Source: Escherichia phage 132. From it: DNA of 64,000 nt. Positions within the stretch are counted from its first letter, which is position 1, and each line of letters starts with the position of its first letter. The notes under the pieces are model-generated. The model was given only the letters and a program-made list of their open reading frames with translations, made no database searches and was not told where the DNA came from. Of the stretch, positions 11,323-15,087 are shown piece after piece. The position numbers were made by a program, and so were the translations under genes. Location of the stretch: sequence record MZ417521. One strand, written 5' to 3'.

Positions 11323-11391
11323 GTTATCGAGTTGGTGCCATTATATACATCGTTTTCTGATTGCGTTTTGTGTGCTTTCAAAATGAAGAAA

Positions 11392-11405
11392 GGGGCCGAA
11401 GCCCC
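11392..11405 (-). terminator. GGGGC-CGAA-GCCCC hairpin downstream of hoc
   Basis: 5-bp GC stem with 4-nt loop directly after hoc stop on minus strand. Confidence 0.5.
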
Positions 11406-11410
11406 TGAGA

Positions 11411-12835
11411 TTATGGATAGGTATAGATGATACCAGTTTCTAAAGCAGTTTTATGAATGATGTATCCATTACGCGATTCTTGAACATCAACTTCTGGATA
11501 GTCTTTCATCATCTTCTGAAGAGTGTAACGATGCAAGTAGTATTTACTATCTGGATCTTCAGTTTTCCAATCTTTACCTTCTTCAGTCATTTTTTGGATT
11601 TCATCCATAACCCACCAACCGCACCAGATATAAGCTGAGCTACGATGTGGAAGAGGATGAACATAAGGTAATTCACCTTCTGGTTCCGGAGCAACTTTAT
11701 CAGTCACTTGAACTTGACCTGTGGCTTTAACTGTTTTACTATCATAGTCAGTTGCTGTAACGACAGCAGTAACTTCAATAGTTTGACTTCCAATAGATGA
11801 GGTATCAACAGTATATACGTTAGTTGACCCTTCCACAGGAGAAGAATCTTTCTTCCATGAGTAAGTAATTTGTGCTGCTTCAGGTGCGCCAGTAACATTA
11901 GCAGTAAATGTAGCCGAAGCATCTTGCTGAACATTAATAGAAGGAGGAGTCAATGTAACCTGTGGATTCATTGTCTTCTTATTAACTGTCAATGATACTT
12001 CATTGGAAGTAACTTCCTTTTCATTATAATTTTCTGCAGTTACTTGGGCTACGCATTTAATTCTTTTTACTCCACTTGTAGTTGGAGTATAGTTAAATGT
12101 AGAGTTAGTTTCTCCACCAACTTGTGAATCATCTACATACCACTGATACGTGGCAGACGCTCCATCAGGTTGAGAAGCTAAGGCAGCAGTAAATTGAACC
12201 GGGGTTCCAATTACTCCAGCAGCAGGACTATCAGGAGTTACTGCCAAGGTAGTTGTCTGCGTCTTTTTATTAACCGTCAATGATACTTCATTAGAAGTAA
12301 CGCTCAGTGCATCATAATCTGTCGCAGTTACTTGAGCTACACACTTAATTTTTTTAACTCCGCTTGTAGTAGGAGTATAATTGAATGTAGCAGAAGTTGC
12401 TTCGCTCACAGGAGAACCGTCAACGTACCATTGATACGTAGCAGATGCGCCCGATGGCTGTGAAGCTAAGGCAGCAGTAAATTCAACGGCTGTTCCGATT
12501 ACTCCTTCTGGAGGACTATTAGGAGTTACAGCTAAGGTAGTTGTCTGTGTCTTATTTTGAACTGTGATAGTTGTACTAATTTCAGCTGTTTCAGCTTCAG
12601 CTTCAGCTTCTGGAACTGTATTTGTTGCAACCACTTTAATAGTCTTTTGACCAGCAGGTCCTTTTAATACATAATTAAAGGTTGCTTCAGCTCCATCCTG
12701 TGGAACATTATCTACACTCCAAGCATATGTAATAGGTCCATCTCCAGTTTGACCACTGGGTGTAGCAGTAAACTGCTTGGTTTCATCAATAACCCCTGTT
12801 GGTGTTTTAGGAGTTATATCAACTGTAAAAGCCAT
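11411..12835 (-). CDS. hoc: Highly immunogenic outer capsid protein Hoc, with an extra internal Ig-like domain
   Basis: 474 aa; N- and C-terminal regions match T4 Hoc by recall; contains two near-identical tandem ~98-aa Ig-like modules. Confidence 0.9.
   Translation of the reverse strand: MAFTVDITPKTPTGVIDETKQFTATPSGQTGDGPITYAWSVDNVPQDGAEATFNYVLKGPAGQKTIKVVATNTVPEAEAEAETAEISTTITVQNKTQTTTLAVTPNSPPEGVIGTAVEFTAALASQPSGASATYQWYVDGSPVSEATSATFNYTPTTSGVKKIKCVAQVTATDYDALSVTSNEVSLTVNKKTQTTTLAVTPDSPAAGVIGTPVQFTAALASQPDGASATYQWYVDDSQVGGETNSTFNYTPTTSGVKRIKCVAQVTAENYNEKEVTSNEVSLTVNKKTMNPQVTLTPPSINVQQDASATFTANVTGAPEAAQITYSWKKDSSPVEGSTNVYTVDTSSIGSQTIEVTAVVTATDYDSKTVKATGQVQVTDKVAPEPEGELPYVHPLPHRSSAYIWCGWWVMDEIQKMTEEGKDWKTEDPDSKYYLHRYTLQKMMKDYPEVDVQESRNGYIIHKTALETGIIYTYP
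11969..12556 (-). repeat. Tandem in-frame duplication (2 x ~294 bp) encoding adjacent Ig-like domains of Hoc
   Basis: Two consecutive ~294-bp units with high nucleotide identity; protein copies both begin KTQTTTLAVTP and end VTSNEVSLTVNKK. Confidence 0.8.
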
Positions 12836-12844
12836 AAGTTATCC

Positions 12845-13525
12845 TTATTTTAATGTTACGAAAGAAGAGTTACGCGTTTCACGAATTAGAACTGATCCGT
12901 CACGGTTAATGTAGTAAATTAAGCTAAATAAAGTTTGGTGTGCCGACGCATGTTCAAAACTAGTTGGGTGAGATTTCCAATCCGGAGTTTCAGCAATCCA
13001 CTGGTAAATCCACCAAGGAACAGTGCAGAATCCTGGATTTTTTCCAATCAGCTGAAGATTCGGACTAAAGTTTTCCGGAAGAGTAAATACAGACGGCTTT
13101 TCAGATTCAATAATCTCAGCTACAGCCTGTTCGAATTTTTCTTCAACAAAAGGAGTATCTTCAATCAAAACATCGGTATTTTCAGGAATTTTATCCGTTT
13201 CTACTACTTCAATTTTAATGTCAGATTTAACCGGAGAATCAATCAGAAGTGCTGCTTCTGGATTGACTTCTTCATCGTCATATTTTAATCCCTCTGCGGC
13301 ATCAGCAGCATCAATTAAGTCTTTAATAGATAACCCATCAGTCTCTGGCATAGGTTCACTAGCGAGCTTCTGGAGGGCTTCTTCAATATCAATAACGATA
13401 TTATCAAAAGATTTATTCTTTTTGACCTTTATACCAAACTGTTCAGCATATTCAGCTAATTTAGCTTTAGCTTCTTTATTATCATCAAGAGCCTTCAGCT
13501 CTGCAATATAATCTTTATCTATCAT
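12845..13525 (-). CDS. inh: Inhibitor of prohead protease (Inh)
   Basis: 226 aa; T4 Inh length; position between hoc and uvsW. Confidence 0.85.
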   Translation of the reverse strand: MIDKDYIAELKALDDNKEAKAKLAEYAEQFGIKVKKNKSFDNIVIDIEEALQKLASEPMPETDGLSIKDLIDAADAAEGLKYDDEEVNPEAALLIDSPVKSDIKIEVVETDKIPENTDVLIEDTPFVEEKFEQAVAEIIESEKPSVFTLPENFSPNLQLIGKNPGFCTVPWWIYQWIAETPDWKSHPTSFEHASAHQTLFSLIYYINRDGSVLIRETRNSSFVTLK

Positions 13526-13538
13526 AATATTTCCTCAG

Positions 13539-13546
13539 TATAAATA
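13539..13546 (+). promoter_or_regulatory. Late promoter TATAAATA for uvsW
   Basis: Exact TATAAATA 30 nt upstream of ATG 13576. Confidence 0.55.
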
Positions 13547-13575
13547 TAGATATATTTATTACATGGTATTTAGAC

Positions 13576-15087
13576 ATGACTGACATTAAAGTACATTTTT
13601 ATGATTTTAGTCACGTGAGAATTGATTGTGAAGAAAGTACATTTCATGAACTCCGTGATTTCTTTAGCTTTGAAGCTGACGGGTATCGTTTTAATCCGAA
13701 ATACAAATATGGTCACTGGGATGGACGAATCCGTCTTTTAGATTATAATCGCCTTCTTCCATTCGGCTTAGTCGGGCAAATTAAAAAGTTCTGTGATAAT
13801 TTTGGCTATAAAGCCTGGATTGACCCACAAATTAATGAAAAAGAAGAATTATCAAGAAAAGATTTTGATGAATGGCTTTCTAAATTAGAAATCTATTCAG
13901 GAAATAAAAGAATTGAACCACACTGGTATCAAAAAGATGCAGTGTTCGAAGGATTAGTTAATCGTCGTAGAATTCTTAATCTTCCAACATCCGCAGGTAA
14001 ATCTTTAATTCAAGCTTTGCTTGCACGTTATTATTTGGAAAATTATGAAGGTAAAATTCTTATCATTGTTCCAACAACTGCTCTGACAACTCAGATGGCT
14101 GATGACTTTGTTGACTATCGTTTATTCAGTCATGCAATGATAAAGAAAATCGGTGGTGGAGCATCAAAAGATGATAAATATAAAAATGATGCACCGGTAA
14201 TTGTTGGTACATGGCAAACTGTAGTAAAACAACCAAAAGAATGGTTCTCACAGTTTGGAATGATGATGAATGATGAATGCCATCTTGCCACAGGAAAAAG
14301 TATTTCATCTATCATATCAGGTTTAAATAACTGCATGTTCAAATTCGGTCTATCAGGTTCATTACGTGATGGCAAAGCCAATATAATGCAGTATGTTGGA
14401 ATGTTTGGTGAAATATTTAAGCCAGTAACGACTTCTAAATTAATGGAAGATGGGCAAGTAACTGAGCTAAAAATTAATAGTATTTTTCTTCGCTATCCCG
14501 ATGAGTTCACTACTAAATTAAAGGGAAAAACTTACCAAGAAGAAATAAAAATTATTACTGGGCTCAGTAAAAGAAATAAATGGATCGCTAAATTAGCTAT
14601 TAAGCTTGCGCAAAAAGATGAAAACGCTTTTGTCATGTTTAAGCATGTATCACATGGTAAAGCTATTTTCGATTTAATTAAAAATGAATACGATAAAGTT
14701 TATTACGTATCAGGGGAAGTTGATACTGAAACACGCAATGTAATGAAAACCTTAGCTGAAAACGGTAAAGGAATAATTATAGTAGCTAGTTATGGTGTAT
14801 TTTCTACTGGTATTTCAGTTAAAAATCTGCATCACGTTGTTTTAGCGCACGGTGTTAAATCTAAAATTATTGTATTGCAAACAATAGGTCGCGTATTACG
14901 TAAGCATGGTTCTAAAACAATCGCAACGGTCTGGGACCTCATTGATGATTGCGGTGTTAAGCCAAAATCTGCTAATACGAAAAAGAAATATGTTCATTTG
15001 AACTATCTTTTAAAACACGGCATTGATCGTATTCAGCGCTACGCAGATGAAAAATTTAATTACGTAATGAAAACAGTTAATTTATAA
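13576..15087 (+). CDS. uvsW: UvsW SF2 DNA helicase
   Basis: 503 aa; Walker A-like PTSAGKS and DECH box; T4 UvsW sequence by recall. Confidence 0.95.
   Translation: MTDIKVHFYDFSHVRIDCEESTFHELRDFFSFEADGYRFNPKYKYGHWDGRIRLLDYNRLLPFGLVGQIKKFCDNFGYKAWIDPQINEKEELSRKDFDEWLSKLEIYSGNKRIEPHWYQKDAVFEGLVNRRRILNLPTSAGKSLIQALLARYYLENYEGKILIIVPTTALTTQMADDFVDYRLFSHAMIKKIGGGASKDDKYKNDAPVIVGTWQTVVKQPKEWFSQFGMMMNDECHLATGKSISSIISGLNNCMFKFGLSGSLRDGKANIMQYVGMFGEIFKPVTTSKLMEDGQVTELKINSIFLRYPDEFTTKLKGKTYQEEIKIITGLSKRNKWIAKLAIKLAQKDENAFVMFKHVSHGKAIFDLIKNEYDKVYYVSGEVDTETRNVMKTLAENGKGIIIVASYGVFSTGISVKNLHHVVLAHGVKSKIIVLQTIGRVLRKHGSKTIATVWDLIDDCGVKPKSANTKKKYVHLNYLLKHGIDRIQRYADEKFNYVMKTVNL

Follow-up and report, generated by a model that had tools for sequence, protein, structure and literature searches.

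Escherichia phage 132 carries a five-domain Hoc with two diverged copies of domain 2, and many four-domain Hocs look like deletion derivatives of such genes

The hoc gene of Escherichia phage 132 lies within a stretch of 64,000 nucleotides from record MZ417521 (hereafter the window), and it contains an in-frame tandem duplication that is real and far beyond chance. The product would be a head-decoration fibre of five domains rather than the four of T4 Hoc. We consider it very likely that the two units, D2a and D2b, are diverged paralogues, and that the gene represents one of three long-standing length alleles in a recombining D2 region. As a discovery this is minor, an ordinary and widely deposited allele of a well-known gene: the architecture is already known from hundreds of public records, and variation in the number of Ig-like domains of Hoc has been published. 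What is new, in a modest way, is that many four-domain Hocs of T4 length look, from comparison of their sequences, like deletion derivatives of five-domain genes.

The open reading frame at 11411-12835 on the minus strand is hoc, and its product is the predicted head-decoration fibre of this T4-like phage, a Tequatrovirus: its position is T4-like, with inh and 24.3 as neighbours, and its C-terminal domain is ~99% identical to that of T4. The genomic position is conserved more widely, the gene order rnlB-24.2-24.3-hoc-inh, all on the same strand, being common to the window, T4, PP01, and AR1, and a phmmer comparison of the window protein with T4 Hoc chains in the PDB (5vf3_Z and others) gave E=1e-218. 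The window is Tequatrovirus genome; several deposited phages show ~96-97% identity to it over 24 kb, and none matches it exactly. The gene and its parts are as follows.

12842-12846, minus strand: Shine-Dalgarno AAGGA that precedes the hoc ATG and overlaps the stop codon of inh, read from the sequence
11411-12835, minus strand: hoc coding sequence, highly immunogenic outer capsid (head decoration) protein Hoc, five-domain allele, 474 aa plus stop in the open reading frame listing
12554-12835, minus strand: Ig-like domain 1 (D1, aa 1-94), aligning to T4 Hoc aa 1-92, all-beta, pLDDT about 80-90
12593-12610, minus strand: hexanucleotide repeat with three GAAGCT hexamers on the coding strand, which give EAEAEA in a domain-1 loop
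12266-12553, minus strand: Ig/PKD-like domain 2a, formed by repeat unit 1 (aa 95-190), scoring 191 bits with the unit HMM, predicted beta-sandwich with pLDDT about 90
11978-12265, minus strand: Ig/PKD-like domain 2b, formed by repeat unit 2 (aa 191-286), scoring 197 bits with the unit HMM
11702-11977, minus strand: Ig-like domain 3 (D3, aa 287-378), counterpart of T4 domain 3, aligned to T4 aa 189-280
11414-11701, minus strand: C-terminal capsid-binding domain (aa 379-474), counterpart of T4 281-376, about 99% identical to T4
11391-11406, minus strand: terminator-like GC hairpin (AGGGGCTTCGGCCCCT) with a T-run, 5 nt past the hoc stop

A terminator is annotated at the position equivalent to 11391-11406 in other phage records. 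T4 hoc is a late gene; a scan for sigma-70 promoters around hoc in the window found them at background level (9 found versus 8.1 expected). On the other side of inh (12845-13525), the gap at 13526-13575 that separates it from uvsW (13576-15087) is without the segE homing-endonuclease gene that T4 has there. The UvsW open reading frame is 503 aa both in the window and in a contig from SRR23754808 (L007), versus a 587-aa CDS in NC_000866.4, and the latter record bears a note of 'sequence discrepancies'.

Alignment to T4 gives the domain order as D1, two copies of T4 domain 2, D3, and the C-terminal domain. The last of these (aa 379-474) can be aligned over its full length with T4 Hoc 281-376, and two substitutions are all that the alignment shows; residues 281-376 are the capsid-binding domain of T4 Hoc (PMC10385173). 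Ahead of it, Pfam, structure prediction, and structural comparison all point to an N-terminal linear string of Ig-like domains. PKD, Ig_2, Ig_3, and I-set each score above their cut-offs, with the best PKD stretch at aa 197-269 (40.6 bits versus a cut-off of 23.5) and with Ig_3 and I-set at aa 291-376; against the HMM of the D2 unit, D1 of the window reaches only ~32 bits. An AlphaFold2 model built with 39 homologues (mean pLDDT 83) predicts an all-beta fold for four successive domains (aa ~1-93, 95-189, 191-285, and 287-378; pLDDT about 90), followed by an alpha/beta C-terminal domain at low confidence (pLDDT 40-65). In the PDB, the top Foldseek matches are proteins with several Ig domains in a row (Dscam Ig1-4, ICAM-5 D1-D4, and NCAM Ig1-3, with E down to about 1e-14), and further matches include CD22 and an RTX adhesin.

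The original prediction had placed this Hoc at 474 aa and T4 Hoc at 376 aa and had proposed five domains for the one and four for the other; both lengths are correct, and the alignment, the unit HMM, and the AlphaFold2 model agree in making the fifth domain a second copy of T4 domain 2. It had also put the repeat unit at ~294 bp and ~98 aa, a figure derived from 474-376. The actual unit is 288 nt and 96 aa, and the 98-aa surplus over T4 Hoc (376 aa) is made up of one 96-aa unit and 2 aa, 'EA', from the domain-1 hexamer. The same extra GAAGCT hexamer accounts for a length of 474 aa here versus 472 aa in most two-copy Hocs. In the domain-1 loop, the window has the hexamer count of PP01 plus one (GAAGCT), AR1 has a loop of the same length in an ESESEP version, and T4 has a shorter, unrelated loop.

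A repeat search located two direct 288-nt copies, at 11973-12260 and 12261-12548, with 78% identity, and Tandem Repeats Finder reported 11973-12553 with a period of 288, 2.0 copies, 79% matches, and a score of 738. When aligned in codon register, unit 1 and unit 2 are identical at 226/288 nt (78.5%) and at 76/96 aa (79%). Both begin with KTQTTTLAVTP and end with VTSNEVSLTVNK, and each has peptides of its own, SPPEGVIGTAVEFT and ATDYDALSV in unit 1 and SPAAGVIGTPVQFT and AENYNEKEV in unit 2. The tandem in-frame duplication of an Ig-like domain that had been claimed inside hoc is thus borne out by both searches and by the codon-register alignment, and neither a 474-aa T4 Hoc nor units less than 70% identical, either of which was to have spoken against it, was found. 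However, the units had also been called 'near-identical' at the DNA level and a 'perfect direct repeat', and neither description survives: the longest exact blocks that they share in register are 22, 17, 14, and 11 nt.

The mismatches between the units fall 13, 12, and 37 at codon positions 1, 2, and 3, a pattern that points to an old duplication under purifying selection. With ~21% divergence, the repeat would make a poor substrate for recombination, and the duplication does not look recent. The suggestion that it is a recombination substrate for copy-number variation nevertheless finds support in natural variants with one, two, and three units. We considered a contingency or phase-variable tandem-repeat locus, which would need long repeats, perfect or nearly so, that change copy number reversibly and often, and rejected it, as the units share 78.5% identity and no exact block longer than 22 nt; copy-number change is documented between phages only, and as deletion only.

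A megablast search with hoc against 50,697 phage records matched 678, and spans were read in 60 of these, evenly spaced. About 21/60 had a two-copy span (1419 or 1425 nt) and about 30/60 a T4-like single-copy span (about 1131 nt), while two looked three-copy and seven were partial or divergent. The five-domain hoc is not unusual, roughly a third of the sampled related records sharing its architecture, and although talk of an 'extra' domain suggests that this phage gained one, its two-copy form belongs to a widespread and apparently old allele class. The nearest record is the hoc of vB_EcoM_SP1 (98.6% nt identity), and none is identical. Carriers of the two-copy form include RefSeq AR1 (1425 nt), PP01, wV7, and several BASEL phages, and the window protein, with two 96-aa D2 units and a length in the range of 472-474 aa, belongs to this two-copy five-domain Tequatrovirus class (AR1/PP01 type).

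Among the best 120 representatives of 90%-identity protein clusters, drawn from a collection of 5.8 billion proteins, the lengths are 376 (73), 472 (29), and 568-570 aa (9), with a few odd ones, and the unit HMM gives one, two, or three strong matches (>170 bits) according to length class, with D1 and D3 at ~30 bits. Hoc homologues are reported to bear variable strings of one to ten Ig-like domains (PMC10385173). In the open-access literature, we found no description of D2 duplication or copy-number polymorphism in Tequatrovirus, and likewise none of the origin of T4_ev240.

Several individual records stand out. Phage moskry (MN850651, hoc at 301-1719 of the extracted locus) is filed under Mosigvirus and has a Tequatrovirus-type two-copy hoc with 89.8% nt identity to the window, inside which the submitter annotated a 533-nt repeat_region; hoc could have been exchanged between genera, or the phage could be misfiled. 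In IME537, T2 PV958097, and vB_EcoM_CE1, hoc is annotated as two or three CDS, and the spans are 1132, 1117, and 1130 nt rather than 1131, which suggests frameshifted or disrupted genes or sequencing errors. When positions 11411-11690 of the window are compared with RB69 and DalCa, megablast does not align the part with the Ig domains, which gives a sharp module boundary where the capsid-binding domain begins.

The direction of copy-number change was assessed by fitting the D2 unit of single-copy genes as a chimera with a unit-1 head and a unit-2 tail, the expected deletion product, and using the reverse chimera, which has the same degrees of freedom, as a control. The comparison covered 82 single-copy genes and 31 two-copy donors x 97 breakpoints, mostly at the protein level. 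Across these representatives, which stand for 90%-identity clusters and are phylogenetically non-independent, the better fit was forward in 42, reverse in 10, and tied in 30. Under a strict comparison, which required at least 95/96 matches and a closer fit than that of any pure unit, 15 cases were forward, with at least nine different breakpoints among them, and none was reverse.

Two genes could be followed at the nucleotide level. The single unit of the SRR23754808 contig (protein P0054) corresponds to window u1[1-70]+u2[71-288] at 288/288 nt: all 62/62 informative sites partition perfectly, and the switch lies within the 22-nt exact block. The remaining hoc of this contig is 98.8% identical to that of the window, and inh is identical at 670/681. 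The unit of T4_ev240 fits u1[1-219]+u2[220-288] at 286/288 nt, with the switch in the 11-nt block. The blocks concerned are the following.

12462-12483, minus strand: 22-nt exact block (AATTTACTGCTGCCTTAGCTTC), the longest that the units have in common, unit-1 copy, the putative crossover interval of the P0054-type deletion allele
12174-12195, minus strand: unit-2 copy of the same 22-nt exact block, from the in-register comparison of the units
12324-12334 (unit 1) and 12036-12046 (unit 2): 11-nt exact block shared by the units

Judged by these matches, the SRR23754808 and T4_ev240 genes appear to be one-step in-frame deletion derivatives of a window-like allele, and it is such exact forward chimeras, together with the outcome of 15 versus 0, that make many four-domain Hocs look like deletion derivatives. 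The event that we propose is a recurrent unequal homologous crossover of unit 1 with unit 2 in exact blocks of 11-22 nt, by which 288 nt would be lost in frame and a five-domain gene would become a four-domain gene of T4 length. For the domain 2 of T4 itself, the best fit (273/288 nt, 94/96 aa) comes from joining the window units the other way round, with a unit-2-like head and a unit-1-like tail, so that not every single-copy allele would be a simple deletion product of a window-like gene. We also rejected the use of T4 to infer the ancestral copy number, given this reverse chimera and the reassortment of segment alleles in nearly all combinations.

The three-copy Hocs (EC101 UIS74392, UGKSEcP1, and UGKSEcP2; 568-570 aa) have the same type of 96-aa tandem unit and one more of them than the window, and their units are mutually 73-84% identical. 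In EC101 (OL310488), hoc occupies 1201-2907 of the extracted locus (1707 nt, 568 aa), and its units are mutually identical at 220-228/288 nt. The idea that three-copy genes are recent reciprocal products, in which the middle unit would consist of a unit-3 head and a unit-1 tail, was rejected, EC101 giving 229/288 versus 228/288 for the control; the same test of the middle unit across the three-copy proteins gave 74-85/96, with no asymmetry. Since the middle unit of EC101 is no chimera of its neighbours, the three-copy hoc is probably another old allele class. There was also no polarity when two-copy genes were fitted as deletion derivatives of the sampled three-copy genes (forward 11, reverse 13, ties 7), and although some two-copy genes agree at 191/192 with a three-copy gene from which one entire unit is removed, that match is uninformative on direction.

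At the 20 amino acid positions that differ between the two units of the window, the units of other phages show nearly every combination of unit-1, unit-2, and other residues, and this mosaicism is seen alike in one-, two-, and three-copy genes. Variation is concentrated in D1 and D2, with a median pairwise identity across the family of 0.85 and 0.84, respectively, whereas D3 (0.95) and the C-terminal domain (0.99) are conserved. Orthologous units are closer to each other (median identity 0.88-0.89) than are paralogous units within a gene (0.79), which argues that the units have not been homogenised and that the duplication is old; concerted evolution of the two units was rejected on this comparison. 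Proteins with 100% identical non-repeat parts bear one, two, or three units, and copy number thus appears to change on short time scales. The clusters P0076, P0040, P0036, and P0006, for example, have 100% identical D1 and D3+C-terminal parts with one, two, two, and three D2 units, respectively, and differing mosaics, and they constitute a natural near-isogenic series for copy-number effects.

This diversity bears on how the two-copy gene arose, as it might have been born diverged, through an illegitimate or unequal exchange that put two different single-copy D2 alleles from co-infecting phages in tandem, rather than through duplication in place and later divergence. Single-copy D2 alleles differ among themselves (aa identity 0.73-1.00, median 0.85) as much as the units of a gene do (0.79), the region is heavily mosaic, and T4-like phages recombine freely in co-infection. 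However, such an origin requires a non-homologous join precisely at the domain boundary, and many single-copy alleles are chimeras of two-copy units, so that the diversity may itself be a consequence of the array; on balance we think it improbable. In the reading that we prefer, D2a and D2b would be diverged tandem paralogues, of 96 aa each, of the single domain 2 of T4 Hoc, the genus would hold length alleles with one, two, and three D2 units (376, 472/474, and 568/570 aa), and the D2 region would be a recombination hot spot in which segment alleles reassort among units and among phages.

Far less plausible is a recent lineage-specific gain, with domain 2 of a four-domain hoc duplicated in this phage or its near ancestors. 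The reference phage T4 does have one copy, and the units are clear paralogues, so that a duplication must have happened at some point, but 21.5% DNA divergence between the units with an excess at third positions, the greater closeness of orthologous units in about 30 other cluster representatives, an architecture common to about one third of the sampled records, the 15 deletion-type chimeras versus 0 reverse, and the existence of exact 288/288 deletion derivatives all speak against recency. That the second unit is an assembly artefact, from a mis-assembled repeat or a mix of phages with different D2 alleles, can be dismissed even though tandem repeats are known to cause assembly error and mixed T4-like lysates are common, as 62/288 positions differ between the units and would place reads unambiguously, the frame is intact with RBS and terminator present, and hundreds of independent records, RefSeq AR1 and PP01 among them, have the same architecture.

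Set beside T4 Hoc (NP_049793, 376 aa; PDB 5vf3, 8t1x, and others), the window has the same gene at the same locus, with two D2 units where T4 has one, and the role as a capsid fibre at hexamer centres is presumably common to both. AR1 (YP_009167995, 474 aa), PP01 (BBC14520, 472 aa), wV7, and vB_EcoM_SP1 are five-domain with two D2 units, like the window; their hoc genes are collinear with that of the window over the whole gene at 92-98.6% nt identity, and they differ from it by point changes and by the presence or absence of a single hexamer in the loop of D1. Among other Hoc-like proteins, that of Klebsiella phage PMBT63 has an additional Ig-like domain, that of Serratia phage Muldoon has 10, and that of PhiPNJ-9 is without D3 (PMC10385173, PMC13435897, PMC11853027). 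These follow the same principle of a conserved capsid-binding domain and a variable Ig string, but they are distant homologues from other genera, whereas the variation described here is within one genus, proceeds in whole 96-aa steps, and has identifiable crossover products.

T4 Hoc forms a fibre of ~180 angstroms that is built from Ig-like domains and contributes to adhesion to mucus and glycans (PMC10385173, PMC11853027). By analogy with it, each gp23 hexamer of the mature capsid would bind one Hoc molecule at its centre through the conserved C-terminal domain, a binding domain nearly identical to that of T4, and the linear string of Ig-like domains would project from the capsid. With the extra domain, the fibre would be longer by about the length of one Ig domain, which we estimate at roughly 4 nm, and would offer glycans or mucus a second D2-type surface that differs from the first; from this we infer a longer fibre and altered adhesion.

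A possible but tentative extension is that the D2 array acts as a population-level variation device, with one to three copies and their mosaics under diversifying selection and with the four-domain Hoc of T4 as a derived, shortened form. Homologous and unequal recombination would then shuffle D2, and selection would act on fibre reach and on glycan or mucus specificity.

Hoc is the T4 surface fibre on which phage display and vaccine scaffolds draw, and the "bacteriophage adherence to mucus" model is built on it. A five-domain Hoc occurs in many natural T4-like phages, among them therapeutic phages and O157:H7 phages (AR1, PP01), and it seems that this form can collapse to four domains through a precise in-frame 288-bp deletion, which is relevant to the comparison of adhesion phenotypes, to the design of Hoc fusions, and to checks on the stability of phage stocks. 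If the deletion reading is true, the T4 reference architecture would be one outcome of a recombining D2 array rather than the prototype.
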